The notes below the pieces were generated by a model. The model had not been told where the DNA came from. It worked only from the letters and a program-made list of their open reading frames with translations, and ran no database searches. DNA of 39,270 nt from Escherichia phage 285P, in sequence record NC_015249.1; one strand, given 5' to 3'. This document shows, in pieces, positions 146-38,582 of this stretch (position 1 is the stretch's first letter; each line of letters begins with the position of its first letter). The position numbers and the translations under genes were made by a program.

Positions 146-168
146 TAATGCGACTCACTATTGAGAGA
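146..168 (+). promoter_or_regulatory. T7-type phage promoter, left-most (phiOL-like); TAATGCGACTCACTATTGAGAGA
   Basis: Seen in sequence: 17/23 core match to T7 consensus TAATACGACTCACTATAGGGAGA, located upstream of the host early promoters as phiOL is in T7. Confidence 0.55.
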
Positions 169-200
169 AATACTGCTAATGGTCATTCTCTCTTTATGTC

Positions 201-251
201 TACTATAAGAGACTATAAGACCACTTAAAGAGACTTTGAGATTCTTTAAGA
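201..251. repeat. left-end array of ~10-bp direct repeats (ACTATAAGAG x2, ACTTAAAGAG, ACTTTGAGAT, TCTTTAAGAT)
   Basis: Seen in sequence: five tandem decamer-like repeats just upstream of the first TTGACA promoter; analogous to the short repeats near T7 genome ends. Confidence 0.5.
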
Positions 252-258
252 TTGAGGG

Positions 259-288
259 TTGACATTGATAATAGCTTATGAGACTATA
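259..288 (+). promoter_or_regulatory. candidate host sigma70 early promoter (TTGACA, 17-bp spacer, GACTAT)
   Basis: Seen: consensus -35 TTGACA with a non-canonical -10; position matches the T7 A1/A2/A3 cluster to the right of phiOL. Confidence 0.4.
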
Positions 289-393
289 GCAACCGTTGAG
301 AGACACAACGCTACCAACTACTAGACAAGACCACGAGTTATCTAGTAAAGCTGAAGGGTCTCAAGTAGTCATCAACCAGACATACGAAAGTAG

Positions 394-422
394 TTGACTC
401 AACGAAAGCAATAACGTAGTAT
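394..422 (+). promoter_or_regulatory. candidate host sigma70 early promoter (TTGACT, 17 bp, TAGTAT)
   Basis: Seen: -35 TTGACT and -10 TAGTAT with 17-bp spacer. Confidence 0.5.
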
Positions 423-488
423 AGCAGTCGTCAACAACTGGTCGCCCTCTGAAACAACATGAGGTGTCACGGTGAGAAACAAAAGTAG

Positions 489-518
489 TTGACAAGTAGC
501 AACAACAAGATGTAAGAT
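489..518 (+). promoter_or_regulatory. candidate host sigma70 early promoter (TTGACA, 18 bp, TAAGAT), A2-like
   Basis: Seen: -35 TTGACA and -10 TAAGAT; TAAGAT is the -10 I recall for T7 A2. Confidence 0.5.
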
Positions 519-636
519 GTACGACATGCAGTAAGGGTGTAGGGATAGGAACCGAGAAACCTGCCCGTGACCCGCCAAGGATAAGGCACTAGCCGTGAGT
601 CGAATTCGGTCACTCATCGCATAAAAGAATAACAGG

Positions 637-665
637 TTGACAGTCTCCTTTAAAAACTGTAAGCT
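637..665 (+). promoter_or_regulatory. candidate host sigma70 early promoter (TTGACA, 17 bp, TAAGCT)
   Basis: Seen: consensus -35 with weak -10. Confidence 0.35.
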
Positions 666-741
666 GTACCGGAAACATACATAACGTTCTTGTGAAGTCC
701 CACACTGAAAGGGACTCGGTGCTAACAAACCTGCACTTAAA

Positions 742-859
742 GCTCTTTAACAATTTGGACAATAGCACTCTTGAGATGGCGGCACTAGCGATTAACTCAA
801 GGTGACTCGAAAGAGAAGCCTTTATGATAATCACTGTAACCAACATCGAGGCAATCATC
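742..859 (+). other. gene 0.3 leader region, T7 R0.3-like (CTCTTTAACAAT...AACTCAAGG...CCTTTATGATA)
   Basis: Mixed: strongly resembles my recollection of the T7 gene 0.3 leader/RNase III R0.3 region; not verified. Confidence 0.4.
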
Positions 860-1318
860 ATGATTCACACTAAAGAGCAAGCTAACGTTTTCTATGTACT
901 GGTAAGCGCATTCCGTTCTAACCTCGACGATGAGGTCAACATGAGTCGCCACCGCCACATGGTTAACAACCTGCGCAACGCACCGGGTCTTTATGGTAGC
1001 GTTGAGTCTACCGATTTAACTGGCTGTTACCGCGAAGCCATCTCAAGTGCACCAACTGAAGAGAAAACAATCCGTGTACGTTGTAAAGACAAGGCACAGG
1101 TTCTCAATGTCGCACGTCTGGCATGTAATGAGTGGGAACAAGATTGCGTACTGGTCTATAAGTCACAGACTCACACGGCTGGATTAGTGTACGCTAAAGG
1201 CATCGACGGGTACAAAGCTGAACGTCTGCACGGTAGCTTCCAGCGCATCCCTAAAGGTGCACCAATCCAAGGCTGCTTCACGGTTGACGAGTTCGGCAAA
1301 TACTGGCAGGTAGCATAA
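860..1318 (+). CDS. 0.3: S-adenosylmethionine lyase (T3 gene 0.3-type SAMase), anti-restriction
   Basis: 152 aa from internal Met of ORF 824-1318 (MIHTKEQANVFYVLVSAFRSNL...CFTVDEFGKYWQVA); length and sequence match my recollection of T3 SAMase; not acidic like T7 Ocr. GAGG RBS upstream. Confidence 0.75.
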   Translation: MIHTKEQANVFYVLVSAFRSNLDDEVNMSRHRHMVNNLRNAPGLYGSVESTDLTGCYREAISSAPTEEKTIRVRCKDKAQVLNVARLACNEWEQDCVLVYKSQTHTAGLVYAKGIDGYKAERLHGSFQRIPKGAPIQGCFTVDEFGKYWQVA

Positions 1319-1319
1319 C

Positions 1320-1517
1320 ATGGTCGCACTCTTTGTAATCACAATGTACGCTCTGATTGGGGCGTACTTCCTGAGAGACTTCAAGCGTGGTCTGGTTATA
1401 CACAAAGCTAACTTCTCGCACCTGAAGTATGGCTTTCTACCACGATTCACAGTCCGTGAACGCAACGGGCGCTTTAAGGCTAACAAGGTTGGTATCTTCT
1501 ATGTTGCAACACATTAA
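1320..1517 (+). CDS. small early protein with N-terminal hydrophobic helix (gene 0.4-0.6 region)
   Basis: 65-aa ORF starting 1 nt after the SAMase stop; N-terminal VALFVITMYALIGAYFL segment; no recognised homolog. Confidence 0.35.
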   Translation: MVALFVITMYALIGAYFLRDFKRGLVIHKANFSHLKYGFLPRFTVRERNGRFKANKVGIFYVATH

Positions 1518-1621
1518 ACGCAATGTCGGCTTCTACATGGTCTTCGTTGTGTGGCCTACGCTCTGTATTATCTTCATGAAATAACACTCTCACAATCTTC
1601 TCTCTTAAAGGACACAATCTA

Positions 1622-2719
1622 ATGAACTACACCGACATTCAGGCACGTCTGGCAATCATCAAGTCTCTCCCGATTAGCGAACTGGACGAGCGCCAGCCTC
1701 TTCTGGTTGCACTGGCTGCTGACATCGTGAACGGTGAAACGTGTGATGGTAACGACACCGATGGCTCGAACGGCTTGGAGTATCAGGACTGGTGGCACAC
1801 CTTGGGCGCACTCATGCGTGATGCAGGTTTCCACATGTTAGGCAATGGTCACTTCAGTGCGGCCTACTCGCACGAAATGTTACCGGGTCGAGTTATCAAG
1901 GTTGGCTTTAAGAAAGAGGATTCAGGCGCTGCATACACTGCATTCTGTAGGATGCACCAAGGTAGAGCGGGTATCCCTAACGTCTATCACGTAGCACGTC
2001 ATGCAGGTTGTTATACGGTTGTTCTTGACAAGCTGGTAGCATGTGACCGCGATAATTATGACCATGAGGTATACGCTGACCTCGCACGTTACTTTGTGGA
2101 GTCGGATTGCCATGACGCAAGCGACTTTGCACCGGGTGACTACGAGTTCATCGAGACCTGCAAAATGATTCGTGAGTTCTTCAAAGGGATTGCATCTTTC
2201 GACATGCACAGTGGGAACATTATGTTCTCTGAAGAGGGCACACCATACATCACTGACCCGGTTAGTTTCTCACATGACCGTGAACGTGAGGACGGTTTCC
2301 CTCTGGACCCTGAAGCACTGCTGGCTGAGGTCGAGGCTGTAGCGCAAGAACGCATGATTGAACGTTGCCGCAACCGCAAGGCCAAGTGTGACCCTAACGG
2401 CTCCTTTCAGGTTAACCGCAAGGCCGCAATGAAACGCCGCAAGCGTAACCGTAAGTTACGTGCTAAACATGCAGCGGAAGGAATGCACCAGTTTGTCAAA
2501 GGGCGGCTTGAGCGTAGAGCTATTGACCGAAATGAACGCCGTGCTGAGATGTTCATGGGGTCTGCATGGCATTACGCATGGTTGCATAATGGTAACGCAA
2601 CGTTCCGCAAGGTTGAACAAGTGAACGGCCTCAAGTGGCAACTAGGGGACCGCCTAGCAATCCAAGCGGGTCTGCCTCTGAACATTGACAAGTTACTTGA
2701 CGCACAACTGCAAGGCTGA
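1622..2719 (+). CDS. 0.7: gene 0.7 serine/threonine protein kinase / host transcription shut-off protein
   Basis: 365 aa; conserved blocks vs T7 gp0.7 (LGNGHFSAAYSH, VIKVGFKKEDSGAAYTAFCRM, DMHSGNIMFS, YITDPVSFS). Confidence 0.9.
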   Translation: MNYTDIQARLAIIKSLPISELDERQPLLVALAADIVNGETCDGNDTDGSNGLEYQDWWHTLGALMRDAGFHMLGNGHFSAAYSHEMLPGRVIKVGFKKEDSGAAYTAFCRMHQGRAGIPNVYHVARHAGCYTVVLDKLVACDRDNYDHEVYADLARYFVESDCHDASDFAPGDYEFIETCKMIREFFKGIASFDMHSGNIMFSEEGTPYITDPVSFSHDREREDGFPLDPEALLAEVEAVAQERMIERCRNRKAKCDPNGSFQVNRKAAMKRRKRNRKLRAKHAAEGMHQFVKGRLERRAIDRNERRAEMFMGSAWHYAWLHNGNATFRKVEQVNGLKWQLGDRLAIQAGLPLNIDKLLDAQLQG

Positions 2720-2733
2720 TAAGGTGTATCTTC

Positions 2734-2758
2734 AAGGTCGGCACTGACTGCTGGCCTT
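2734..2758 (+). promoter_or_regulatory. RNase III-type hairpin between 0.7 and gene 1 (R1-like)
   Basis: Seen: AAGGTCGGCAC/loop/TGCTGGCCTT forms a ~10-bp stem with G-U pairs; same position as T7 R1. Confidence 0.4.
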
Positions 2759-2792
2759 TATAGATAAACTTTCTTAACAACGTGAGGCAACA

Positions 2793-5444
2793 ATGACTAA
2801 CGTAATCAACGCACCAAAGAACGACTTCTCTGACATCGCTAACGCAATCATGCCATACAACATTCTGGCTGACCATTACGGCGCACAGCTTGCAGCTACG
2901 CAGTTACAGCTTGAGCACGAAGCGCACACTGAGGGTGAGAAGCGTTTTCTTAAGGCAATGGAACGTCAAATCAAAGCGGGTGAGTTCGGTGATAACGCAG
3001 TGGCTAAACCGCTCCTGTCATCTCTCGCACCGAAGTTTATCGAAGCGTGGAACACTTGGTTCACCGAGGTGGAAGCGAAGCGTGGCAAGCGTCCAGTAGC
3101 CTACAATCTGGTACAGAAGGTTGCACCTGAAGCGGCAGCTTTCATCACACTGAAGGTCACACTCGCTTGCTTGACGAAAGAAGAGTTCACCAACCTGCAA
3201 TCGGTCGCCACTAAGATTGGTCGCAGTATTGAGGATGAACTGCGTTTTGGTCGCATCCGTGACGAAGAAGCGAAGCACTTTAAGAACCACGTACAGGAGG
3301 CACTGAACAAGCGCGTTGGTATCGTCTACAAGAAAGCATTCATGCAAGCCGTAGAGGGCAAGATGCTTGATGCTGGTCAACTGCAAACCAAGTGGACTAC
3401 ATGGACACCTGAAGAATCAATTCACGTTGGTGTGCGCATGTTGGAACTGCTCATCGGGTCTACTGGTCTCGTTGAGTTACACCGCCCGTTCGCTGGTAAC
3501 GTTGAGAAGGATGGCGAGTACATCCAACTGACCGAACAATATGTAGACCTGCTGTCTAAACGTGCTGGTGCACTGGCTGCAATCGCTCCGATGTATCAGC
3601 CTTGCGTGGTCCCTCCGAAGCCTTGGACTTCTCCGGTTGGTGGTGGCTATTGGGCTGCTGGTCGCAAGCCTCTCTCTCTGGTTCGTACTGGTTCCAAGAA
3701 GGGACTTGAGCGTTACAACGATGTGTACATGCCTGAAGTTTACAAGGCCGTGAACATCGCACAGAATACTCCTTGGAAGATTAACAAGAAGGTTCTGGCA
3801 GTGGTCAACGAGATTGTGAACTGGAAGCATTGCCCGGTTGAAGATGTTCCTGCTCTGGAACGTGGTGAACTGCCTGTCAAACCTGAAGACATCGACACGA
3901 ACGAGGCATCTCTCAAAGCGTGGAAGAAAGCGGCCTCCGCAATCTACCGCAAAGAGAAGGCACGAGTGTCACGCCGCATGAGCATGGAGTTCATGTTAGG
4001 TCAGGCCAATAAGTTCGCACAGTTCAAAGCTATCTGGTTCCCAATGAACATGGACTGGCGCGGTCGTGTGTATGCTGTGCCGATGTTTAACCCGCAAGGC
4101 AACGACATGACCAAAGGCTTGCTGACGCTCGCTAAAGGTAAACCAATCGGTGTCGATGGGTACTACTGGCTGAAGATTCACGGTGCTAACACTGCTGGCG
4201 TGGACAAGGTGGACTTTGCAGAACGCATCAAGTTCATTGATGACAACCATGAGAACATCATGAGCGTAGCTGCTGACCCGATTGCTAACACTTGGTGGGC
4301 CGAGCAAGACTCTCCGTTCTGCTTCCTCGCGTTCTGCTTCGAGTATGCAGGTGTGCAACACCACGGGATGAACTACAACTGCTCTCTTCCGCTGGCGTTC
4401 GATGGTAGCTGCTCCGGTATTCAGCACTTCTCCGCGATGCTCCGTGATGAGATTGGTGGTCGTGCGGTTAACCTGCTGCCGAGCAAGGAAGTACAGGACA
4501 TCTACCGCATCGTTGCGGAACGTGTGAACGAAATACTGAACCAAGATGTTATCAACGGGACCGACAACGAAGTAGAGACCGTGACCAATAAGGACACCGG
4601 AGAAATCACTGAGAAGCTCAAGCTGGGAACTAAGGAACTGGCTGGTCAATGGTTAGCATACGGTGTTACTCGTAAGGTGACTAAGCGTTCCGTTATGACC
4701 TTGGCGTATGGTTCCAAAGAGTACGGCTTCCGTGACCAAGTGCTAGAGGATACCATTCAGCCAGCTATCGACGATGGCAAGGGCTTGATGTTCACTCAAC
4801 CGAACCAAGCGGCTGGCTACATGGCTAAACTGATTTGGAACGCGGTAACGGTGACAGTGGTCGCAGCGGTTGAAGCAATGAACTGGCTGAAGTCTGCGGC
4901 TAAACTTCTAGCTGCTGAAGTCAAGGACAAGAAGACCAAAGAGGTTCTCCGTAAGCGCTGTGCGGTACATTGGGTTACTCCTGATGGCTTCCCGGTCTGG
5001 CAGGAATACAAGAAGCCAGTACAGACCCGCTTGAACCTGATGTTCTTAGGCCAGATTCGTCTACAGCCTACCGTGAACACCAACAAGGATAGCGGGATTG
5101 ATGCTCGTAAACAGGAGTCAGGTATCGCACCTAACTTTGTTCACTCAATGGATGGTAGCCACCTGCGCATGACCGTGGTTCGCTCCAACGAGGTCTACGG
5201 TGTGGAATCGTTCGCACTGATTCACGACTCCTTTGGTACTATCCCTGCTGATGCTGGCAACCTGTTTAAAGCAGTGCGTGAAACGATGGTGAACACCTAT
5301 GAAGAGAACGATGTACTAGCAGACTTCTATGAGCAATTTGCTGACCAGTTGCACGAATCACAGCTTGACAAGATGCCTGAGATGCCAGCTAAAGGTTCTC
5401 TGGACCTGCAAGAAATCCTTAAGTCAGACTTTGCGTTTGCCTAA
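2793..5444 (+). CDS. 1: T7-type single-subunit DNA-dependent RNA polymerase
   Basis: 883 aa (same as T7 RNAP); long identical stretches to T7 gp1 as recalled (PMFQPCVVPPKPWT, DGSCSGIQHFSAMLRDE, HDSFGTIPADA, C-terminal FAFA). Confidence 0.97.
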   Translation: MTNVINAPKNDFSDIANAIMPYNILADHYGAQLAATQLQLEHEAHTEGEKRFLKAMERQIKAGEFGDNAVAKPLLSSLAPKFIEAWNTWFTEVEAKRGKRPVAYNLVQKVAPEAAAFITLKVTLACLTKEEFTNLQSVATKIGRSIEDELRFGRIRDEEAKHFKNHVQEALNKRVGIVYKKAFMQAVEGKMLDAGQLQTKWTTWTPEESIHVGVRMLELLIGSTGLVELHRPFAGNVEKDGEYIQLTEQYVDLLSKRAGALAAIAPMYQPCVVPPKPWTSPVGGGYWAAGRKPLSLVRTGSKKGLERYNDVYMPEVYKAVNIAQNTPWKINKKVLAVVNEIVNWKHCPVEDVPALERGELPVKPEDIDTNEASLKAWKKAASAIYRKEKARVSRRMSMEFMLGQANKFAQFKAIWFPMNMDWRGRVYAVPMFNPQGNDMTKGLLTLAKGKPIGVDGYYWLKIHGANTAGVDKVDFAERIKFIDDNHENIMSVAADPIANTWWAEQDSPFCFLAFCFEYAGVQHHGMNYNCSLPLAFDGSCSGIQHFSAMLRDEIGGRAVNLLPSKEVQDIYRIVAERVNEILNQDVINGTDNEVETVTNKDTGEITEKLKLGTKELAGQWLAYGVTRKVTKRSVMTLAYGSKEYGFRDQVLEDTIQPAIDDGKGLMFTQPNQAAGYMAKLIWNAVTVTVVAAVEAMNWLKSAAKLLAAEVKDKKTKEVLRKRCAVHWVTPDGFPVWQEYKKPVQTRLNLMFLGQIRLQPTVNTNKDSGIDARKQESGIAPNFVHSMDGSHLRMTVVRSNEVYGVESFALIHDSFGTIPADAGNLFKAVRETMVNTYEENDVLADFYEQFADQLHESQLDKMPEMPAKGSLDLQEILKSDFAFA

Positions 5445-5451
5445 CGGAATC

Positions 5452-5474
5452 TAATACGACTCACTATTGGGAGC
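5452..5474 (+). promoter_or_regulatory. T7-type promoter (phi1.1A-like) TAATACGACTCACTATTGGGAGC
   Basis: Seen: perfect -17..-2 match, T at -1; begins 8 nt after the RNAP stop. Confidence 0.8.
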
Positions 5475-5486
5475 CTTCGGGCTTCC

Positions 5487-5533
5487 TAAACTTTAAGATA
5501 CTTTAAGTTCTAACTTTAAGAGGAAACACAATC
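5487..5533. other. AT-rich segment with 3x CTTTAAG repeats; candidate primary replication origin region
   Basis: Seen: repeats at 5491, 5501, 5514. Inference from T7, where the primary origin is the AT-rich region just downstream of phi1.1A/B. Confidence 0.3.
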
Positions 5534-6091
5534 ATGTTTACTTTAATCACTTCAGTAGGCGCTCTCGTATCAACCATTCTTGCAGCAACATACTATAATC
5601 GTTCAAAGGTATTTCTCACTAAGCTAATCAAAGAAGAGAAGAACTCTCATGCACTCAAAGAGAGACTTGAAGATGGATGGCGAGATAAGCAGGAACTAGC
5701 TGGTCGAATCCGTACCTTAGAGTTCGAACAACAATATGACATGTCGAACCAACGAGAACTCATTGAGCGTCTACGCGCTGAGGCAGTGGAGTACCGCAAG
5801 GAACTTAAAGAGGCAAAGAGTACCATCCGTGAGTACACTCACAGTGACATCACGTCTATCAAGTTTACTGCTCACATCCCGGATGCTGGATGGAAGCGCA
5901 CTGAGTTCAAGCTAGGCATAGGGTCTTGTGGCAAAGAGGTTACGTGTTTACACTGGAAAGAACAGTCGGACCGCTATCTGCTGACACAGACGTGCACTGA
6001 TGGTGAGCGCAAAGAGTTCACCTATTATAAGAAAGACGTAGCTGGTCGCATTGAGATTGCACGTAAGGTCGCAGACAATACGACTCACTAA
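5534..6091 (+). CDS. hypothetical membrane-anchored coiled-coil protein (inserted between gene 1 and 1.1; possibly T3 gene 1.05-position)
   Basis: 185-aa ORF with AAGAGGA RBS; N-terminal TM-like helix (FTLITSVGALVSTILAATYY), charged heptad-like helical region, Cys-containing C-terminal domain. T7 has no gene here. Confidence 0.6.
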   Translation: MFTLITSVGALVSTILAATYYNRSKVFLTKLIKEEKNSHALKERLEDGWRDKQELAGRIRTLEFEQQYDMSNQRELIERLRAEAVEYRKELKEAKSTIREYTHSDITSIKFTAHIPDAGWKRTEFKLGIGSCGKEVTCLHWKEQSDRYLLTQTCTDGERKEFTYYKKDVAGRIEIARKVADNTTH

Positions 6092-6098
6092 TGGGAAA
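6076..6098 (+). promoter_or_regulatory. T7-type promoter (phi1.1B-like) CAATACGACTCACTAATGGGAAA
   Basis: Seen: overlaps the last codons of ORF 5534-6091; -2/-1 are AT. Confidence 0.7.
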
Positions 6099-6105
6099 CA
6101 CTGAA

Positions 6106-6149
6106 AGTTAAACTCAAGGTCATCTACATGGTGGCCTTCATGATTAACT
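6106..6149 (+). promoter_or_regulatory. conserved RNase III-type hairpin element, copy 1 (R1.1-like)
   Basis: Seen: AGTTAAACT-CAAGGTCATC-loop-GGTGGCCTT-CATGATTAACT; inner 9-bp stem, outer AGTTAA/TTAACT stem; near-identical copies at 6623 and 13599. Confidence 0.55.
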
Positions 6150-6179
6150 GTCATTAACTACACAGAAGGAAATAACATT

Positions 6180-6329
6180 ATGCGTACCAACTTTGAACCA
6201 ACCACTAAGCGCAACAACGTAATCAATGAACACGGTGCTGAATGGCAGGAACGTAAAGACCGCATGAAGAAACGCCACAAGACACAACGTGGCAACGCTG
6301 AGAAACGTAATTGGAAGGAGGCACTCTAA
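6180..6329 (+). CDS. 1.1: gene 1.1 small basic protein
   Basis: 49 aa (MRTNFEPTTKRNNVINEHGAEWQERKDRMKKRHKTQRGNAEKRNWKEAL); basic, resembles T7 gp1.1; stop overlaps the gene 1.2 ATG. Confidence 0.6.
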   Translation: MRTNFEPTTKRNNVINEHGAEWQERKDRMKKRHKTQRGNAEKRNWKEAL

Positions 6330-6601
6330 TGGGTCGCTTATACAGTGGTAACTTAATAGCATTCAAGGATGCCATCGCTAGACTTAAAGAAGACCACGAT
6401 GCAAATGTGGTCGTTGAGACTTATCGCTATGAGGACTTCGCACAGCGTCGGGTGGTAGCCGGAGAGACACTTCGAGTGACCTTGCGGAATGGCTTAATGC
6501 TGACCGCTAAGTGTTTCGAACAGTCAGACGAAGACGTTCGCTGTAATGCACAGACTGAATGGCTCCGTAAGGTTCACAGTGACCTGAAGCACTGGAAGTA
6601 A
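6329..6601 (+). CDS. 1.2: gene 1.2 protein (host dGTPase inhibitor homolog)
   Basis: 90 aa from MGRLYSGNLIAFK...; N- and C-terminal blocks (MGRLYSGNL, DEDV, HSDLKHWK) match T7 gp1.2 as recalled. Confidence 0.8.
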   Translation: MGRLYSGNLIAFKDAIARLKEDHDANVVVETYRYEDFAQRRVVAGETLRVTLRNGLMLTAKCFEQSDEDVRCNAQTEWLRKVHSDLKHWK

Positions 6602-6621
6602 TACGACTCACTATTGCGAAA
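6599..6621 (+). promoter_or_regulatory. T7-type promoter (phi1.3-like) TAATACGACTCACTATTGCGAAA
   Basis: Seen: overlaps the gene 1.2 stop; +2 is C (weaker initiation region). Confidence 0.65.
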
Positions 6622-6622
6622 G

Positions 6623-6666
6623 AGTTAAACTAAAGGTCATCTTAATGGTGGCCTTTGTGATTAACT
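6623..6666 (+). promoter_or_regulatory. conserved RNase III-type hairpin element, copy 2 (R1.3-like)
   Basis: Seen: AGTTAAACTAAAGGTCATCTTAATGGTGGCCTTTGTGATTAACT. Confidence 0.55.
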
Positions 6667-6702
6667 TTTGATTACTTAATAACCAACAATAGGAGTTCCA
6701 TC

Positions 6703-7734
6703 ATGGAAATCACATTCAAGACTAACCCTTTTAAAGCTGTATCCTACGTTGAGTCTGCCATTAAGAAAGCACTCGACAAAGCTGGCTACCTGATTGCTGA
6801 CACTAAGCATGATGGTGTGCGTGGTAACATCGTGGTTGATAATACGGCTGACTGCCTGTGGCTGTCCCGTGTCTCTAAGACCATCCCCGCGCTTGAGCAC
6901 CTTAATGGGTTCGACCAACGCTGGGCTAATGTTCTCAAAGATGACCGCTGGATTTTCCCTGATGGCTTCATGCTGGATGGTGAACTGATGGTCAAAGGCG
7001 TAGACTTCAACACAGGGTCTGGCCTACTGAGAACCAAGTGGCTCAAGAAGACAAACTGTGGATTTGATATTGGTGGAGTAGAGCCTCTCAAGGGGAGTAA
7101 AGTAGACTTCTGCTTAGACCCTAAGAAACTTAAGGTTGTCCTGTATGCCGCTATGCCGTATCACGATATGGTAGAAGGCAAAGAGTACGGCGTTATGTCC
7201 CTCCTGATGCAAGAGCATGTGCGTTCCCTCATTCCGGTTCTTAGCGAACACTTCCCGGAAATCACTTGGGAACTATCTGAGGCCAAAGAAGTCTACGATA
7301 TGGTAGAACTTCAGGAACTCTACGAGAAAGCCCGTGCCGATGGTCATGAAGGTCTGGTCGTCAAAGACCCGCTGGAAGTCTACAAGCGCGGGAAGAAGTC
7401 TGGCTGGTGGAAGATGAAGCCTGAGAATGAAGCTGATGGTGTCATCGTTGGACTCAATTGGGGTACTCCGGGTCTGGCTAATGAAGGTAAAGTGATTGGC
7501 TTTGAGGTTCTCTTGGAGTCCGGTCGTGTAGTCTCTGCCAACAACATTAGCCAAGCGTTGATGGATGAGTTTACTGCTGCCGTCAAACATGCTGAGTCTG
7601 TGGGTATGGGTATGCCTTACACTGGCTTCGCCTGTCAGGTTGCCTACATGGAGGAAACTCCTGATGGTTCTCTGCGTCACCCTTCGTTCGTTATGTTCCG
7701 TGGTACTGAAGATAACCCAACGGAGAAGATGTAA
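6703..7734 (+). CDS. 1.3: ATP-dependent DNA ligase
   Basis: 343 aa; KxDGxR adenylation motif (DTKHDGVRGN) and extensive identity to T7 ligase as recalled (GLVVKDP, KSGWWKMKPENEADG, EGKVIGFEVLLESGR, RHPSFVMFRGTEDNP). Confidence 0.95.
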   Translation: MEITFKTNPFKAVSYVESAIKKALDKAGYLIADTKHDGVRGNIVVDNTADCLWLSRVSKTIPALEHLNGFDQRWANVLKDDRWIFPDGFMLDGELMVKGVDFNTGSGLLRTKWLKKTNCGFDIGGVEPLKGSKVDFCLDPKKLKVVLYAAMPYHDMVEGKEYGVMSLLMQEHVRSLIPVLSEHFPEITWELSEAKEVYDMVELQELYEKARADGHEGLVVKDPLEVYKRGKKSGWWKMKPENEADGVIVGLNWGTPGLANEGKVIGFEVLLESGRVVSANNISQALMDEFTAAVKHAESVGMGMPYTGFACQVAYMEETPDGSLRHPSFVMFRGTEDNPTEKM

Positions 7735-7916
7735 TGATAATCTTTGACCAAGGCATTTGGAAGGTATGGCAACACCCACACTTACAGGTATTCCACATCC
7801 TGAAGTGGTCTGAGGGAGACGACCCAGCCTCTTATGGGCGCAAGTGGGATTACTTCACACAGAAAGAGTGTAGAAGCATATCCGAGGTAAAGGCATATCT
7901 TCACGCCAACATGTAG
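7734..7916 (+). CDS. hypothetical protein (gene 1.4/1.5 position)
   Basis: 60-aa ORF overlapping the ligase stop (TAATG); no recognised homolog. Confidence 0.4.
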   Translation: MIIFDQGIWKVWQHPHLQVFHILKWSEGDDPASYGRKWDYFTQKECRSISEVKAYLHANM

Positions 7917-7923
7917 TAACACT

Positions 7924-7958
7924 GGTCAGACTTTCGGGTCTGGCCTTTTCGTGTTTCT
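7924..7958 (+). terminator. intrinsic terminator, candidate early terminator TE for host RNAP
   Basis: Seen: GGTCAGAC-TTTCGG-GTCTGGCC 8-bp stem followed by TTTTCGTGTTTCT; T7 TE lies just after the ligase region. Confidence 0.6.
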
Positions 7959-7978
7959 ATTAGACTCACTATGGAGGA
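7957..7978 (+). promoter_or_regulatory. degenerate T7-type promoter-like element (CTATTAGACTCACTATGGAGGA)
   Basis: Seen: GACTCACTAT core but 1-nt short before GG and altered -17..-12; near-duplicate of the element at 8065. Confidence 0.35.
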
Positions 7979-7986
7979 ACAACCTC

Positions 7987-8067
7987 ATGCTATTTCTAAT
8001 TGCTGCTGCTGTCTTTGCCACGTTTGCCTTCGTTATCATTGACGACAACTGCTGGCCTGATTGCTAA
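7987..8067 (+). CDS. tiny hydrophobic peptide (26 aa, MLFLIAAAVFATFAFVIIDDNCWPDC)
   Basis: ATG 9 nt after a GGAGG; too short for the ORF track; hydrophobic. Confidence 0.25.
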   Translation: MLFLIAAAVFATFAFVIIDDNCWPDC

Positions 8068-8087
8068 TACGACTCACCTATGGAGGA
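8065..8087 (+). promoter_or_regulatory. T7-type promoter variant with 1-nt insertion (TAATACGACTCACCTATGGAGGA)
   Basis: Seen: perfect -17..-5 then CTATGG; GGAGG doubles as the RBS for the 8095 ATG. Confidence 0.45.
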
Positions 8088-8094
8088 AACACTT

Positions 8095-8669: not shown

Positions 8670-8763
8670 TGACATCTTATATTTCCTGCTAATTTGTGTT
8701 GGAATGGGTGCTTGCCTGTTCCTCATGTTTTGGGCTATAGAGGTGGAATATGGAAAAGCCTAG
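8662..8763 (+). CDS. tiny hydrophobic peptide (33 aa, [33 protein letters not shown])
   Basis: Overlaps the 1.7 stop in another frame; hydrophobic; weak RBS. Confidence 0.25.
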   Translation: MLNDILYFLLICVGMGACLFLMFWAIEVEYGKA

Positions 8764-8848: not shown

Positions 8849-9036
8849 GCACTCTGAATAAAGGGTCACTGGTAAACGGTGACAAGAAGTTCTTCGCTAC
8901 GGTAGAAGGCCAAGGCCAATCGTTCGAAGTACCTGTGTTCGCTACGTCTCTTGAAGAGGCCAATGAGTTAGCTGAGTGGCAATACGTCCCTGCTGGCTTC
9001 GCTGTAACACGCATCCGTCCAGACCGTAAGGTTTAA
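8845..9036 (+). CDS. 2: gene 2 protein, host RNA polymerase inhibitor
   Basis: 63 aa; near-identical in pattern to T7 gp2 (KKF.ATVE....SFEVP......[21 protein letters not shown]). Confidence 0.85.
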
Positions 9037-9056
9037 TAGGACTCACTAATGGGAGA
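9034..9056 (+). promoter_or_regulatory. T7-type promoter (phi2.5-like) TAATAGGACTCACTAATGGGAGA
   Basis: Seen: overlaps the gene 2 stop; followed by a 5' stem-loop GGGAGA..TTTCCC. Confidence 0.7.
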
Positions 9057-10705: not shown

Positions 10706-10798
10706 ATGATGATTATCCACGAGATGGGTCTGTACGATTTGATTTATCGCCTCGCGTTCATGCTGGCAATGGTCTACATTCTGACCCGCAAGGATTAA
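10706..10798 (+). CDS. tiny hydrophobic peptide (30 aa, MMIIHEMGLYDLIYRLAFMLAMVYILTRKD)
   Basis: Hand-translated; immediately after the amidase gene; end overlaps the next promoter. Confidence 0.25.
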   Translation: MMIIHEMGLYDLIYRLAFMLAMVYILTRKD

Positions 10799-10817
10799 TA
10801 GAACTCACTATGGGAGA
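10795..10817 (+). promoter_or_regulatory. T7-type promoter variant (phi3.8/phi4-like) TTAATAGAACTCACTATGGGAGA
   Basis: Seen: ACTCACTAT-GGGAGA with one base fewer than consensus; followed by 5' hairpin GGGAGA-GCCGAAAGGTT-TCTCCC. Confidence 0.55.
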
Positions 10818-10868
10818 GCCGAAAGGTTTCTCCCTTTGTTCGCTAAAATTGTATAAGGAGTAATCACT

Positions 10869-12822: not shown

Positions 12823-12845
12823 CAATACAACTCACTAATGGGACA
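12823..12845 (+). promoter_or_regulatory. T7-type promoter (phi4.3-like) CAATACAACTCACTAATGGGACA
   Basis: Seen: followed by 5' hairpin GGGACA..TGTTCCC. Confidence 0.65.
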
Positions 12846-13655: not shown

Positions 13656-13678
13656 CTATTCAACTCACTAATGGGAGA
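13656..13678 (+). promoter_or_regulatory. T7-type promoter (phi4.7-like) CTATTCAACTCACTAATGGGAGA
   Basis: Seen: good -10..+6, weaker upstream half. Confidence 0.55.
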
Positions 13679-17731: not shown

Positions 17732-17754
17732 CAATACGACTCACTATTGAGAGG
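17732..17754 (+). promoter_or_regulatory. T7-type promoter (phi6.5-like) CAATACGACTCACTATTGAGAGG
   Basis: Seen in sequence. Confidence 0.7.
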
Positions 17755-18356: not shown

Positions 18357-18725
18357 ATGGGTTGGGGTAAAAAGATTCGCAAATCAGTTAAGAAGACTAT
18401 CAAGAAAGTAACTAAGCCAGTCGAGAAGATTGTCAAGGAAACTGGTAAGGCAGTCGAGAAGGTCGGGAAGGAAGCTGGCAAAGTCGTTGGTGGCGTTGCT
18501 GGTGCACTTGCTGGTGGTGGTAAGCCCGATGTACAGGTAGTTGAACAAGCTGCTCCTGTAGCTGCTCCGGCTCCTGCTGCTGCACAGATTATCGAGCCAC
18601 CGAGTAAAGACGATGTGGACACCGATGATGATGCACAGACCGAATCTGGTAAGAAGAAAGCTCGTGCTGGTGGTAAGAAATCACTGAGTGTCGCTCGTAG
18701 TTCTGGCGGTGGTCTTAATATCTAA
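18357..18725 (+). CDS. 7.3: gene 7.3 virion/tail-associated protein
   Basis: 122 aa; Lys-rich N-terminus and C-terminal ESGKKKARAGGKKSLSVARSSGGGLNI match T7 gp7.3. Confidence 0.85.
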   Translation: MGWGKKIRKSVKKTIKKVTKPVEKIVKETGKAVEKVGKEAGKVVGGVAGALAGGGKPDVQVVEQAAPVAAPAPAAAQIIEPPSKDDVDTDDDAQTESGKKKARAGGKKSLSVARSSGGGLNI

Positions 18726-18739: not shown

Positions 18740-20347
18740 ATGGCAAGCTCACAGAAACGTGAAGGCTTCGCTGAGAATGGTGCCAAGGCGGTGTATGACG
18801 CATTGAAGAACGACCGGAACTCCTATGAGACCCGGGCGGAAAACTGTGCGAAGTACACCATCCCTTCGTTGTTCCCTAAAGACTCCGACAACGCCTCTAC
18901 TGATTATACCACTCCGTGGCAAGCAGTTGGCGCTCGTGGCTTGAACAACTTGGCCTCTAAGCTCATGCTCGCTCTGTTCCCTATGCAGACGTGGATGAAG
19001 CTGACCATCTCTGAGTTCGAAGCGAAACAATTGGTTGCACAGCCAGCCGAACTAGCGAAGGTCGAAGAGGGTCTCTCAATGGTCGAGCGTATCTTGATGA
19101 ACTACATCGAGTCAAACTCCTACCGTGTGACTCTCTTTGAGACCCTCAAGCAGTTGGTCGTTGCAGGTAACGCTCTGCTCTACATTCCTGAACCGGAAGG
19201 TACTTACAATCCCATGAAGTTATACCGCCTGTCTTCTTATGTTGTCCAACGAGACGCATTCGGCACGGTACTACAGATTGTGACCTTGGATAAGACTGCC
19301 TATGCAGCACTACCAGAAGACGTAAGAAACTCTATGGACTCCGGTCAGGAACATAAAGGCGACGAAATGATTGATGTGTACACGCACATTTATCTTGACG
19401 AAGAATCTGGTGAGTACCTGAAGTACGAAGAGATTGATGGTGTTGAAGTCGATGGTACAGATGCTTCTTATCCGGTGGACGCTTGTCCTTATATCCCGGT
19501 TCGCATGGTACGCATTGATGGAGAATCATATGGTCGTTCTTACTGTGAGGAATACTTAGGTGACTTACGGTCCCTTGAGAACCTCCAAGAAGCTATCGTT
19601 AAGATGTCAATGATTAGTGCTAAAGTTATTGGCTTGGTTAACCCGGCTGGTATCACACAGGTTCGTCGTTTGACCAAAGCACAGACTGGTGACTTCGTGT
19701 CTGGTCGTCCAGAAGACATCTCGTTCCTTCAGCTTGAAAAGGCCGCAGACTTCTCTGTAGCGAAAGCTGTGAGTGAACAGATTGAGGGCCGACTGTCCTA
19801 TGCCTTTATGTTGAACTCCGCTGTGCAACGCACTGGTGAGCGTGTGACTGCCGAAGAGATTCGATATGTTGCATCTGAACTCGAAGATACCCTTGGTGGT
19901 GTCTATTCGATTCTCTCACAGGAACTTCAGTTGCCAATGGTTCGTGTCCTGCTGAAGCAACTTCAAGCGACCAATCAGATTCCTGAGCTACCGAAAGAGG
20001 CCGTTGAGCCTACTATCAGTACCGGGATGGAAGCATTGGGTCGTGGTCAAGACCTCGATAAGCTGGAGCGTTGTATTGCTGCTTGGTCTGCTCTTGCTCC
20101 TATGCAGAATGACCCGGACATCAACATTGCGACCATTAAGTTGCGCATTGCGAACGCTATCGGCATCGACACTTCTGGTATCCTCAAGACACCTGAAGAG
20201 AAACAACAGGAGATGGCTGAGGCTGCTCAAGGCACTGCACTGGAGAACGCTGCTGCATCTGCTGGTGCTGGTGCTGGTGCACTTGCCACTGCAAGCCCTG
20301 AGAACATGCAAGCGGCTGCTGAACAGGCTGGAATGGTTCCAAATTAA
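18740..20347 (+). CDS. 8: portal (head-to-tail connector) protein
   Basis: 535 aa (T7 gp8 is 536); position and size. Confidence 0.95.
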   Translation: MASSQKREGFAENGAKAVYDALKNDRNSYETRAENCAKYTIPSLFPKDSDNASTDYTTPWQAVGARGLNNLASKLMLALFPMQTWMKLTISEFEAKQLVAQPAELAKVEEGLSMVERILMNYIESNSYRVTLFETLKQLVVAGNALLYIPEPEGTYNPMKLYRLSSYVVQRDAFGTVLQIVTLDKTAYAALPEDVRNSMDSGQEHKGDEMIDVYTHIYLDEESGEYLKYEEIDGVEVDGTDASYPVDACPYIPVRMVRIDGESYGRSYCEEYLGDLRSLENLQEAIVKMSMISAKVIGLVNPAGITQVRRLTKAQTGDFVSGRPEDISFLQLEKAADFSVAKAVSEQIEGRLSYAFMLNSAVQRTGERVTAEEIRYVASELEDTLGGVYSILSQELQLPMVRVLLKQLQATNQIPELPKEAVEPTISTGMEALGRGQDLDKLERCIAAWSALAPMQNDPDINIATIKLRIANAIGIDTSGILKTPEEKQQEMAEAAQGTALENAAASAGAGAGALATASPENMQAAAEQAGMVPN

Positions 20348-20367
20348 TACGACTCACTAATGGGAGA
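20345..20367 (+). promoter_or_regulatory. T7-type promoter (phi9-like) TAATACGACTCACTAATGGGAGA
   Basis: Seen: overlaps the portal stop; followed by 5' hairpin GGGAG..CTCCC. Confidence 0.8.
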
Positions 20368-21338: not shown

Positions 21339-21361
21339 TAATACGACTCACTATTGGGAGA
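21339..21361 (+). promoter_or_regulatory. T7-type promoter (phi10-like) TAATACGACTCACTATTGGGAGA
   Basis: Seen: only the -1 A to T difference from T7 consensus; 5' hairpin GGGAGAGACATTACGTTCTCCC follows. Confidence 0.85.
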
Positions 21362-25738: not shown

Positions 25739-25761
25739 CAATACGACTCACTATTGGGAAG
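25739..25761 (+). promoter_or_regulatory. T7-type promoter (phi13-like) CAATACGACTCACTATTGGGAAG
   Basis: Seen in sequence. Confidence 0.8.
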
Positions 25762-26205: not shown

Positions 26206-26811
26206 ATGTGCTGGATGGCTGCAATCCCTATCGCTATGCAAGGCGCTTCCATGATTATGGGAGGTATGCAGGGTGAACAGGCAAAGGCCGCACAGATTGA
26301 CCAAGGTCGTCGTCAAAGTATGCAGATGCTGAAGGAGATGAACTACAACGAAGCTAACCTTAAGTTAGAATCTCGTGACCTCATTGACTCCACCGTGCAA
26401 GAGATGACCCAATCGAATATGAACCGTGTGAGAAACATGGGGACTATCCGCGCGGCAATCGGTGAAGGGATGCTTGAAGGTAACTCTATGGAACGTGTAA
26501 CCCGCGTTACCGAGGGTGACTTCCTTCGAGAGTCTCAAGGTCTCACTGAGAACTACCAACGTGACTATAGTGTCATCTTAGGGAAGCGTTTAGCTAACCA
26601 CGAGAACACAGTGAGTCAGATTAAAGAAATCAACAACTCTGAGCCACGGCTTAAAGGCAAGCTGGAACAAATTATCGACCCATTAGGCTTAGGCTTAACG
26701 AAGCTGGTTGATGTTGCAACTGCTGGTAGTCCTCTAACCAATAAGTTAGGTAAGAAGGCTGCTGCTAAGGTCAAGGCTTCAGATGCCAAGTCAACAGGCC
26801 AAGGTAAATAA
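26206..26811 (+). CDS. 14: internal virion (ejection) protein B
   Basis: 201 aa; N-terminus MCWMAAIPIA and R.AIGE.MLEG.SM.R..RVTEG match T7 gp14. Confidence 0.9.
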   Translation: MCWMAAIPIAMQGASMIMGGMQGEQAKAAQIDQGRRQSMQMLKEMNYNEANLKLESRDLIDSTVQEMTQSNMNRVRNMGTIRAAIGEGMLEGNSMERVTRVTEGDFLRESQGLTENYQRDYSVILGKRLANHENTVSQIKEINNSEPRLKGKLEQIIDPLGLGLTKLVDVATAGSPLTNKLGKKAAAKVKASDAKSTGQGK

Positions 26812-29105: not shown

Positions 29106-29128
29106 CAGACCACGATAGGAGGTTTCAA

Positions 29129-33076: not shown

Positions 33077-33077
33077 T

Positions 33078-33100
33078 CAATACGACTCACTATTGGGAAG
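33078..33100 (+). promoter_or_regulatory. T7-type promoter (phi17-like) CAATACGACTCACTATTGGGAAG
   Basis: Seen: overlaps the gene 16 stop; 5' hairpin GGGAAGG..CTTCCC follows. Confidence 0.8.
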
Positions 33101-33147
33101 GCTAACACAGCTTCCCTTTATTATACCTAACCGAAAGGAGGCTACAG

Positions 33148-35079: not shown

Positions 35080-35126
35080 TGGACAACATATAGACCACGG
35101 ATGGTCTCAACAATAAGGAGGACACA

Positions 35127-35333
35127 ATGTTGTCTTTAGATTTTAACAACGAGGTAGTGAAGGCTGCTCCGATTGTAGGGACAGGTGTAGCCGATGGCGC
35201 TGCCCGTCTGTTCTTCGGACTGTCCCTTAACGAGTGGTTCTATGTAGCCGCAATTGCCTACACAGTGGCTCAAATTGGTGCCAAGGTAGTCGATGTGATT
35301 ATCAAATGGAAGAAGGAGGGCAAAGATGTCTAA
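35127..35333 (+). CDS. 17.5: holin (class II)
   Basis: 68 aa; near-identical to T7 gp17.5 as recalled (MLSLDFNNE..KAAPIVGTGVAD..ARLFFGLSLNEWFYVAAIAYTV.QIGAKVVD). Confidence 0.9.
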   Translation: MLSLDFNNEVVKAAPIVGTGVADGAARLFFGLSLNEWFYVAAIAYTVAQIGAKVVDVIIKWKKEGKDV

Positions 35334-35595
35334 CGATAAATCATTAATCCAATTCCTTGAGATGCTGGATACTGAGATGGCTCAACGTATGCTGAAAGAC
35401 CTTCAGGATGACGAGAAGCGCACACCTCAACTTTATAACGCTATCGGGAAACTGCTTGAACGCCATAAGTTCCAAGTCTCCAAGTTACAGCCAGACCGTA
35501 ACATCCTTGGTGGACTGGCAGATGGACTCGAAGAGTACCAGAACATGGTAGGTGCCGATGGTCTCACTGAGGATGAGAAGTACACGCTTAACTGA
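35326..35595 (+). CDS. 18: terminase small subunit
   Basis: 89 aa; KSLI.FLEMLDT.MAQRML.DL.D.E.R.PQLYNAI.KLLERHKFQ match T7 gp18. Confidence 0.9.
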   Translation: MSNDKSLIQFLEMLDTEMAQRMLKDLQDDEKRTPQLYNAIGKLLERHKFQVSKLQPDRNILGGLADGLEEYQNMVGADGLTEDEKYTLN

Positions 35596-35606
35596 TGGTA
35601 ATACTC

Positions 35607-35633
35607 AAGGCCCACTACATCTAGTGGTCTTTA
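35607..35633 (+). promoter_or_regulatory. hairpin AAGGCCCACTA-CATC-TAGTGGTCTTT (possible RNase III/processing site, R18.5 position)
   Basis: Seen: 6-bp perfect stem with AAGG...CTTT flanks reminiscent of the conserved element. Confidence 0.3.
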
Positions 35634-35694
35634 TGAATTATCAACACAACTCACGGTGACGCTACGTGAAATCTGAAAATACAGGAGGGTAGTT

Positions 35695-36138
35695 ATGCTC
35701 AAGAATTTAAAGAGCTACGCCATCGCTGCGGCTTTTGTCTTGGGGATGACCCTTGCGTACAACCACGGCTATGACAAGGCTAACACTAAATGGGAACAGG
35801 AGGTGCACAATGAGTACGTCAAGCAAACTGAGGCGACTGCGAATAAACAGGCTGCTATCAACGAAATCTCACGACAATACCAAGAAGACCTTGCGGCGCT
35901 GGAAGGCAGCACTGATAGGGTCATTAATGATTTGCGTAACGATGGTAAGCGCTTGCGCGTCAAACTATCAGCCACCTCACGAGAACTCCAAGCTAACGGT
36001 GGATGCCTCGCTGATGGTCGAGCCGAACTTGACGAAGAGTTTAGTAAGCGTCTTATCGGAGTAACTCAAAGAGGGGATGCGTGGATTAAGGCGCTCCAAA
36101 ATACAATAACTGAAATGCAATCTAAGAAGGAGAAATAA
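35695..36138 (+). CDS. 18.5: Rz-like i-spanin
   Basis: 147 aa; N-terminal TM then coiled-coil; contains embedded +1 lipoprotein ORF. Confidence 0.9.
   Translation: MLKNLKSYAIAAAFVLGMTLAYNHGYDKANTKWEQEVHNEYVKQTEATANKQAAINEISRQYQEDLAALEGSTDRVINDLRNDGKRLRVKLSATSRELQANGGCLADGRAELDEEFSKRLIGVTQRGDAWIKALQNTITEMQSKKEK
35810..36064 (+). CDS. 18.7: Rz1-like o-spanin (lipoprotein), embedded in Rz in +1 frame
   Basis: 84 aa from Met preceded by GGAGG; lipobox-like MVSAC; C-terminal SLMVEPNLT matches T7 gp18.7. Confidence 0.8.
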   Translation: MSTSSKLRRLRINRLLSTKSHDNTKKTLRRWKAALIGSLMICVTMVSACASNYQPPHENSKLTVDASLMVEPNLTKSLVSVLSE

Positions 36139-36139
36139 T

Positions 36140-36697
36140 ATGGCTACTACAAACTCAAGAACCCGCACACTCTGGACCATCAATGGTCGCTCGCCAGACA
36201 GTCGTGATGTGTATGACCTAAACAATATTGGTATTCGTGTTGGGCGTATCGACATCCCAGCTTCGGAGATGGTTAAGGTTGAGGGCTACTCTAAGGTTGA
36301 ATACGTTATCCAACTGAGTGATGGCACCACTGAGCAACATGCTACGTTCGAGACCCTTATGTCCACTTGGGGTGGCTCCGTCGAGTCTAAACCGGGTAGC
36401 GGGTTCATGACGGTGTTCCTGAATGAGCAAAGCACTGAGCGACTCGGTATGGTTCGAATCGACGTATACAAAGAGTGGACTGGTGCTGACCCTGAACCTG
36501 AAGGTGGTATGGCTTCCTTAGTTAGTGCAACGCTTTCTGCGTCTGATAGTGAATTTGGCACACAGTTCGTGGATAGCGAAGGGAAGAGCGCTTCCGTTAT
36601 GTTCCAACCTAGTAACATCGACGGGGCTGTATCCAAGACCGACACTATCAAGGCTCTTGAGAAGCGCATCGCTGCCTTAGAGAAACCTGCCGAGTAA
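36140..36697 (+). CDS. hypothetical protein inserted between Rz/Rz1 and large terminase
   Basis: 185-aa ORF with AAGGAG RBS 9 nt upstream; no TM; C-terminal amphipathic helix (TIKALEKRIAALEKPAE). T7 has gene 19 directly after 18.5. Confidence 0.6.
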   Translation: MATTNSRTRTLWTINGRSPDSRDVYDLNNIGIRVGRIDIPASEMVKVEGYSKVEYVIQLSDGTTEQHATFETLMSTWGGSVESKPGSGFMTVFLNEQSTERLGMVRIDVYKEWTGADPEPEGGMASLVSATLSASDSEFGTQFVDSEGKSASVMFQPSNIDGAVSKTDTIKALEKRIAALEKPAE

Positions 36698-36712
36698 CAA
36701 TAGGAGGCCACA

Positions 36713-38470
36713 ATGTCTACTCAAGCAAACAAGAATGCGCTCATCGTGGCGCAACTTAAGGGTGACTTCGTGGCCTTCCTGTTCGTCTTATGGAAGGCTC
36801 TGAACTTACCTAAACCAACCAAGTGTCAGATTGATATGGCACGTACACTCGCTAATGGCGACCACAAGAAGTTTATCCTTCAGGCGTTCCGTGGTATCGG
36901 CAAGTCCTTTATCACCTGTGCGTTCGTCGTGTGGGTCTTATGGCGTGACCCTCAACTCAAGGTGCTCATCGTGTCTGCCTCTAAGGAACGTGCTGATGCT
37001 AACTCCATCTTCATCAAGAACATCATCGACCTGCTGCCATTCCTCTCTGAGTTGAAACCTCGACCGGGACAGCGTGACTCTGTGATTAGCTTCGACGTTG
37101 GCTTGGCGAAACCCGACCACTCACCTTCTGTGAAGTCTGTGGGTATCACTGGTCAGTTGACTGGTAGTCGTGCTGACATCATTATCGCAGATGACGTTGA
37201 GGTTCCCGGCAACAGTTCTACAAGCTCTGCTCGTGAGAAGCTCTGGACGTTGGTAACTGAGTTCGCTGCATTACTTAAGCCGCTGCCTACCTCTCGTGTT
37301 ATCTACCTTGGCACACCTCAAACTGAGATGACGCTCTACAAGGAACTTGAGGATAACAAAGGGTACAGCACAGTAATCTGGCCAGCACAGTATCCTCGCA
37401 ATGATGCTGAGGCTCTCTACTATGGGGACCGCTTGGCTCCGATGCTTAAGACTGAATACGATGAAGGCTTCGAGTTACTTCGTGGTCAACCTACTGACCC
37501 TGTTCGATTCGACATGGATGACCTCCGTGAACGTGAACTCGAATATGGTAAAGCTGGCTACACTCTTCAGTTCATGCTCAACCCGAACCTTAGTGATGCC
37601 GAGAAGTACCCGCTACGACTCCGTGACGCTATCGTGTGCGCTGTGGACCCTGAACGTGCCCCATTGTCTTACCAGTGGTTGCCGAACCGTCAGAACCGCA
37701 ATGAGGAACTCCCTAACGTTGGTCTGAAGGGTGATGACATCCATGCGTTCCATACGTGCTCTTCTCGTACCGCTGAGTATCAGTCTAAGATTCTGGTCAT
37801 TGACCCAAGTGGTCGCGGTAAGGATGAGACCGGGTATGCAGTCCTCTACTCACTGAACGGTTACATCTACCTGATGGAAGTCGGAGGGTTCCGTGGTGGC
37901 TACGATGATGCTACCTTAGAGAAGCTCGCTAAGAAGGCCAAGCAGTGGAAGGTACAGACAGTCGTCCATGAGTCCAACTTCGGTGACGGTATGTTCGGTA
38001 AGATTTTCTCTCCGATTCTCCTGAAGCACCATAAGTGTGCCTTAGAGGAAATCCGTGCTAAGGGCATGAAGGAGATGAGAATCTGCGATACTATCGAACC
38101 GTTGATGGGTGCGCACAAGCTGGTCATTCGTGATGAGGTTATCCGTGAGGACTACCAGACTGCTCGTGACCTTGATGGGAAACATGATGTTCGATATAGT
38201 GCGTTCTATCAGATGACCCGTATGACTCGTGAGCGCGGCGCTGTGGCACATGATGACCGCATTGATGCTATCGCATTGGGTATCGAGTTCCTTCGTGAAG
38301 GGATGCTTGTGGACAGCCGTGTAGGTGAAGAAGAGATGACTCTTGAGTTCCTTGAACACCACATGGAGAAACAGACCATTGGTGGTGATGCTATCCATAG
38401 CTACGATGTTGGTGGCGTGGACATCTACTATGAGGACGATGGAGACTCTAGCTGCTTCATTGAGTGGTAA
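36713..38470 (+). CDS. 19: terminase large subunit (DNA maturase B)
   Basis: 585 aa (T7 gp19 is 586); near-identity over long stretches as recalled ([56 protein letters not shown]). Confidence 0.97.
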
Positions 38471-38559
38471 TATAGATAAGTATGCGGGAAAGGTGCATAG
38501 GTAAGCACTTAGTACCGCTACGTTACCATTAAGTAACTTACTGATATACATGAAGAAAT

Positions 38560-38582
38560 TAATACGACTCACTATTGGGAAG
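38560..38582 (+). promoter_or_regulatory. T7-type promoter (phiOR-like) TAATACGACTCACTATTGGGAAG
   Basis: Seen in sequence; rightmost promoter. Confidence 0.8.

Follow-up and report, generated by a model that had tools for sequence, protein, structure and literature searches.

The 39,270-nucleotide genome of Escherichia phage 285P (NC_015249.1; "the window" below means this whole stretch) contains 16 promoters for a phage-encoded RNA polymerase (RNAP), all on the plus strand. Thirteen of them read TA(T/A)T-G around the start site (here and below a hyphen after position -1 marks the boundary with +1), and three weaker ones deviate. We take the 16 sites to be the cognate promoters of the phage's own T7-type RNAP and consider T at position -1 to be a selected, clade-wide polymerase-promoter co-adaptation, a reading to which we assign a probability of about 0.8. 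The trait itself is already known: it was annotated in coliphage BA14 in 2008 and logo-plotted for phages Kvp1 and Berlin.

Comparison of the first 25 kb of the window with Berlinvirus genomes gave 92-96.5% nucleotide identity, over ~95% of the length, to Enterobacter phage PZJ0206, Salmonella BSP161, coliphage BA14, Kluyvera Kvp1, and Yersinia PYPS50. On this genome identity and on the identity of its RNAP, the window is assigned to the T7-like phages of the genus Berlinvirus (the group of BA14, Berlin, Kvp1, and PP74).

Promoter inventory and register

The window was searched for TAATACGACTCACTA with no more than three mismatches, and shuffled sequence served as a control. The search returned 16 matches, 15 of them on the plus strand, as compared with 1.01 +/- 1.08 in the shuffles. 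Two matches, one at 6840 in the ligase gene and the other at 26609 on the minus strand, each have three mismatches and a broken CTCAC core and were discarded as probably due to chance. Every site was read in the register of T7, in which CTCAC occupies -9..-5 and +1 lies four bases further downstream, and the predicted +1 is then a G; the functional support for this assignment would come from the PP74 polymerase-promoter pair described below.

In this register, TATT-G is found at eight promoters (coordinates span -17..+6 and all are on the plus strand): phiOL (146..168, TAATGCGACTCAC TATT-GAGAGA, the ortholog of BA14 phiOL), phi1.05 (5452..5474, TAATACGACTCAC TATT-GGGAGC), phi1.3 (6599..6621, TAATACGACTCAC TATT-GCGAAA), phi6.5 (17732..17754, CAATACGACTCAC TATT-GAGAGG), phi10 (21339..21361, TAATACGACTCAC TATT-GGGAGA, which equals the clade consensus), phi13 (25739..25761, CAATACGACTCAC TATT-GGGAAG), phi17 (33078..33100, CAATACGACTCAC TATT-GGGAAG), and phiOR (38560..38582, TAATACGACTCAC TATT-GGGAAG). 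Five promoters carry TAAT-G, namely phi1.1 (6076..6098, CAATACGACTCAC TAAT-GGGAAA), phi2.5 (9034..9056, TAATAGGACTCAC TAAT-GGGAGA), phi4.3 (12823..12845, CAATACAACTCAC TAAT-GGGACA), phi4.7 (13656..13678, CTATTCAACTCAC TAAT-GGGAGA), and phi9 (20345..20367, TAATACGACTCAC TAAT-GGGAGA). An earlier, sequence-only reading of the window had proposed that its ~13 good promoter copies keep the T7 recognition region at -17..-5 but have T at -1 and never TATA, and had located seven TATT and five TAAT sites. The aligned sites bear this out: the positions and classes were exact, phiOL at 146 is added as the eighth TATT site, and no TATA-G is present. T7-type promoters with TATA (class III, CACTATAG) or TAAA (class II, CACTAAAG) at -4..-1 were absent from the plus strand of the window, which thus departs from the Teseptimavirus consensus; CACTATAG gave two matches on the minus strand, which is the chance level.

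Among the three weaker promoters, phi1.6 (8065..8087, TAATACGACTCAC CTAT-GGAGGA) deviates at -4 and still has T at -1. The other two, phi1.5 (7957..7979, CTATTAGACTCAC TATG-GAGGAA) and the phi3.8-equivalent (10796..10818, TAATAGAACTCAC TATG-GGAGAG), share the form CACTATG-G, which implies G at -1 or else an initiation element shortened by one base. This form is kept across the clade (29 instances), and its annotation in BA14 is inconsistent between the two sites, the phi3.8 one having been shifted by one base.

Several promoters overlap stop codons of upstream genes: 6089-6091 lies at -4..-2 of phi1.1 (the TAA that ends the open reading frame (ORF) 5534..6091), 6599-6601 at -17..-15 of phi1.3 (again a TAA, ending the upstream ORF), and 20345-20347 at -17..-15 of phi9, where the first TAA terminates gene 8. 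A dual constraint therefore acts on some promoter positions.

As in other members of the T7 group (Studiervirinae), which have about 15-17 copies, the coding strand carries a conserved, repeated motif of ~23 bp (-17..+6; 16 sites, versus about one by chance), and its positions are syntenic with the promoters of T7, T3, and BA14. The set (phiOL, 1.05/1.1, 1.3, 1.5, 1.6, 2.5, 3.8, 4.3, 4.7, 6.5, 9, 10, 13, 17, and phiOR) corresponds one-to-one with the annotation of BA14.

A trivial explanation for T at -1 would be an error of register, with the true +1 at the T or with shifted initiation. We regard this as very improbable. Nothing was found in its favor, apart from the two CACTATG-G promoters, which show that spacing can look ambiguous. 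The sequence-only reading had itself named a miscount of -1 as a possibility; the position is not miscounted, because the CTCAC-to-GGGAGA spacing of the window promoters is identical to that of T7 and the annotators of BA14 set +1 at the same G. A start at T would also be at odds with the purine start of T7-family enzymes. In addition, the PP74 promoter, defined in this register, is reported to be functional.

The base at -1 in the clade and beyond

The closest promoter sets are those of BA14, Berlin, and Kvp1. The GenBank record of BA14 (EU734171) annotates 16 promoters as 23-mers spanning -17..+6 with +1 at G; when extracted, they display the same TATT/TAAT plus GGGAGA pattern, the same order, and the same three odd promoters as the window. 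The promoter consensus of Yersinia phage Berlin also equals that of the window, and the Kvp1 genome paper presents WebLogos in which the Kvp1 promoters are closest to those of Berlin (PMC2579914). All three phages thus share with the window the consensus TAATACGACTCACTA(T/A)T-GGGAGA, the number and order of promoters, and the deviant phi1.5, phi1.6, and phi3.8, and their RNAPs are 97-99% identical to that of the window. They differ from it only by single bases at individual promoters; for example, phi1.3 is TATT in the window and TAAT in BA14, while phi2.5 is TAAT in the window and TATT in Berlin. The comparison with catalogued promoter families that the sequence-only reading had suggested thus ends in a match to the known Berlinvirus type, with T, never A, at -1.

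We pooled the promoters from 15 genomes or loci of the clade. Their -4..-1 elements were TA(A/T)T-G in 108 cases, (C/A)TAT-G in 13, TAGT-G in one, TATG-G in 29, and TAAG-G in three, which corresponds to T at -1 in 122 and G in 32. Neither A nor C at -1, and neither TATA nor TAAA at -4..-1, occurred among these 15 genomes and loci. Within orthologous promoter sets, -10..-5 was invariant, and 8 of the 16 sets contained both A and T at -2; these polymorphism counts are approximate, as orthologs were paired by flanking k-mers with a few mis-pairings (phi1.1/1.3, phi4.7, phi13) and individual sets were read by eye. In correctly matched orthologs, -1 changed only to G and never to A or C, the cases being TAAG at phi4.3 in two genomes and CTAT to TATG at phi1.6 in one genome. 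Judging from these alignments, T at -1 is inherited and has become fixed throughout the Berlinvirus/fPS-59/Ninurta clade.

Comparison with T7 itself defines the difference. Class III and class II promoters of T7 resemble those of the window in having identical -17..-5 regions, a G start, the initially transcribed sequence GGGAGA, a two-domain architecture, T/A alternation at -2, syntenic positions, and the same recognition residues in the polymerase. In contrast, -1 is A in 16 of the 17 T7 promoters. The exception, T7 phi2.5, has a -17..-1 17-mer that also occurs in the window (TAATACGACTCACTATT), with T at -1, but it starts with A (TAATACGACTCACTATT-AGGGAA) rather than G, and in T7 it is a lone exception and not the rule.

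A wider survey of position -1 covered about 100 loci around RNAP genes, outside L021-L036, L041, L096, and K1F. A stands at -1 in the K11 and KP32 types, whereas T3 has A in eight promoters and C in six (class II, TAAC). Mixed compositions were found in Stenotrophomonas phage IME15 (A7/T5/C1), Pectobacterium PPWS4/PP81 (A3/T3), and Klebsiella 5OI88 (A5/T2). Erwinia EamP-L1 has C (TAAC-GGG), Jarilo has T in 10 of 14 promoters with an A start (TATT-A), and T is found in Dickeya JA10/Ninurta (TATT-G), Yersinia fPS-59, and a metagenomic relative (L037). Class II promoters of T3 (TAAC-G/A) and the promoters of EamP-L1, JA10/Ninurta, IME15, and Jarilo differ from those of the window in their binding elements or in having other or mixed bases at -1. 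On this comparison, -1 is the evolutionarily labile position of the initiation element among T7-like phages, and T at -1 is not very unusual among them.

Two further observations concern the initiation element as a whole. The first 16 kb of IME15 (L050, Teseptimavirus) contain TATA, TAAA, TATT, TATC, TACT, and TAAT promoters; for a T7-like enzyme, such an initiation element is unusually relaxed. T3-type phages (L003, which is T3, L049, L093, and L105) use TAAA-GGG at late and TAAC-G/A at early and middle promoters, C being at -1 in 6 of 14 T3 promoters; in the window, TATT is found mostly at late promoters and TAAT mostly at class II promoters. Within each lineage, the promoter class seems to be reflected in the -4..-1 element.

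These data bear on the possibility that T at -1 is a neutral lineage variant, i.e. that the position is weakly constrained, T was fixed by drift in the clade ancestor, and A would serve the polymerase just as well. The mixed lineages are in its favor, since IME15, PPWS4, 5OI88, and T3 each tolerate two or more bases at -1 with a single RNAP, and so is the natural T at -1 of T7 phi2.5. Against it, A occurs in none of ~150 promoter instances of the clade, while half of the ortholog sets show both A and T at -2, and at least 13 independent loci all show the same direction of change relative to T7. Because -2 freely accepts an A/T swap and -1 never shows one, and at least 13 loci are shifted alike, the pattern speaks for constraint at -1 rather than drift. 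T at -1 is thus probably under selection, and we consider the neutral variant unlikely.

The polymerase and published activity data

Gene 1 (2793..5444, plus strand) encodes a single-subunit RNAP of 883 amino acids, with T7 RNAP (1cez/1qln) as the top PDB match and the Pfam domains RNA_pol and RPOL_N. It is 76% identical to the RNAP of T7, 94% to that of PP74, 97.5% to that of Berlin, 99% to that of BA14, and 99.8% to that of Salmonella phage vB_STy-RN5i1. The specificity loop (codons at 5007..5102, plus strand) had been described as T7-like from the first, and rightly so: R746, N748, R756, and Q758 are the same as in T7, and residues 739-770 contain only four changes (I743V, F755I, I761V, and E768G). 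The conserved residues fit the GACTCAC that is common to the promoters of the window and T7, and the loop matches -12..-7 as expected for a cognate enzyme of the T7 group.

The intercalating hairpin, which corresponds to T7 residues 230-245 (boundaries from PMC4176174), is encoded at 3480..3527 on the plus strand and has diverged, reading HRPFAGNVEKDGEYIQ in the window versus HRQNAGVVGQDSETIE in T7; V237 is kept. Only 8 of the 883 RNAP columns are diagnostic for the clade with T fixed at -1, and two of them, Q232P and N233F/Y, fall inside this 16-residue element. All T-fixed lineages carry a hairpin of the form R-P-(F/Y) ... E-Y.

The sequence-only reading had proposed that either the hairpin or template-handling residues co-vary with the promoters. 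The second part was not supported: W422, R425, Y639, and H784 are invariant in the RNAP comparison. W422 may stack on the template base at -1, a point that serves here as a lead only. The first part stands as a reasonable candidate and not as a demonstrated link. In its fullest form it states that the hairpin changes Q232P, N233F/Y, and T243Y switch the preference at -1 and give one-nucleotide orthogonality with T7. The diagnostic columns and the hairpin form shared by every T-fixed lineage speak for this proposal. However, a neighbor-joining tree of the RNAPs places every T-fixed lineage in one clade, so the association between hairpin and -1 amounts to a single co-inherited event and not to replicated covariation; a test of covariation between RNAP columns and the base at -1 was rejected as a statistical claim on the same ground. 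The hairpin is also variable in every lineage, whatever its base at -1. Moreover, T at -1 is used naturally by RNAPs with T7-type hairpins, namely at T7 phi2.5, in IME15, and in Jarilo (hairpin RVNAGVIG), which has it in 10 of 14 promoters. The RNAP of IME15 is 90% identical to that of T7, and its promoters (5 of 13 with T) include an exact TAATACGACTCACTATT-GGGAGA. We therefore regard the hairpin mechanism as tentative and rather less likely than not.

At residue 222 (codon 3456-3458), Berlinvirus proper has G and L037 has A, while every other sampled lineage has E. The E222K substitution in T7 RNAP presumably broadens promoter acceptance, and residue 222 might be relevant to tolerance in the initiation region.

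Two published data sets are informative on the activity of such promoters. In the data of Komura et al. 2018, T7 RNAP on TAATACGACTCACTATTGG gave 73.3 RNA/DNA reads versus 169 +/- 19 for the wild type (PMC5937735, S2 file, one barcode); the value applies to TATT. In a 2024 screen, PP74 RNAP was reported to be active with TAATACGACTCACTATTGGGAA as its cognate promoter and to be the most active of the 26 enzymes tested, giving no quantifiable expression from promoters belonging to other enzymes that were functional, "even a single nucleotide change" (PMC11475235). The phage PP74 belongs to Berlinvirus and is identical to locus L013 of our survey. Its RNAP, named R6, and TAATACGACTCACTATTGGGAA are close counterparts of the system in the window: the promoter consensus is identical, the RNAPs are 94% identical, their specificity loops are the same, and V237I is the sole difference between the hairpins. 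Of the two pairs, that of PP74 is the one tested experimentally. Table 1 of the screen lists no promoter one nucleotide away from that of PP74, and by elimination the single-nucleotide variant would be the T7 promoter.

From the conservation pattern and this one cell-free experiment with PP74 RNAP, we infer that the cognate polymerase of the window prefers T at -1. Candidate residues for mediating the preference are Q232P/N233F and T243Y in the hairpin and possibly E222G. In the mechanism that we favor, the upstream element at -17..-5, the same as in T7, would be recognized through a specificity loop essentially identical to that of T7 and through a similar AT-rich loop. Thereafter the polymerase would melt -4..+2 and start at the G located 4 bp downstream of CTCAC, as in T7. 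With TA(T/A)T instead of TA(T/A)A as the melting element, the template base beside the start is A instead of T. As the non-template strand is not required downstream of -5 (reviewed in PMC11617373), the relevant base at -1 is probably the template A. T at -1 would most likely be maintained by selection, the polymerase of the clade initiating best with T. Discrimination appears to be asymmetric, in that T is acceptable to T7 RNAP, whereas A may be unacceptable to the Berlin-type enzyme.

Several points weigh against the selected co-adaptation. The Komura value means that T7 RNAP keeps ~43% of its wild-type activity on TATT (one barcode), which also favors the neutral variant, as do the unchanged known start-site and catalytic residues. 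Several related RNAPs work with mixed A/T or A/C at -1, and the position is thus not generally a hard specificity determinant. Shared ancestry could partly account for the fixed T. Finally, the reported loss of activity of PP74 RNAP upon a one-nucleotide change argues against neutrality, but the text of the screen leaves the variant unnamed, its identity as the T7 promoter follows by elimination from Table 1, and the assay is described as a coupled reticulocyte system rather than a titration of purified enzyme. A stronger version of the co-adaptation holds that RNAPs of the Berlin clade strictly need a template A at -1, so that one base pair provides orthogonality to the T7 promoter even though the binding element is identical, with Q232P, N233F, T243Y, and perhaps E222G as the determinant. 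We find this version doubtful; if true, it would identify the residues that read the start-flanking base in de novo initiation.

Genome context and implications

The phiOL promoter is located at 146 in the window, as compared with 353 in BA14, which has a terminal repeat of 194 bp. For this reason the window (ends 1-168 and 38560-39270) appears to be a genome-length record that either lacks the left terminal repeat or begins directly behind it. About two copies of an imperfect 33-bp tandem repeat are present at 18391-18478, within the ORF 18357..18725 in the gene 7.3 region. Short-repeat arrays were observed near the left end of the related genomes L020, L037, and L038 (TTATGTCACC x8, TAGGTAAGAC x10, and TGAGTATCAT x11), and no array of this kind was found in the window.

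For annotation the finding has little consequence, as these are the expected promoters of a Berlinvirus, and we regard it as known biology with a modest mechanistic question. The relevance to orthogonal expression systems pointed out at the outset has published backing in the results reported for PP74 RNAP (PMC11475235). Use as a truly orthogonal pair would be limited without further engineering, because T7 RNAP still uses TATT at ~40% of the wild-type level. The system has modest value as a natural experiment in which two polymerases share a common upstream element and differ in the base beside the start. If the indication from PP74 holds, and one nucleotide abolishes activity, near-identical but insulated promoter/polymerase pairs could be built, and these phages would offer a minimal system for the sensing of the -1 template base by T7-type enzymes.

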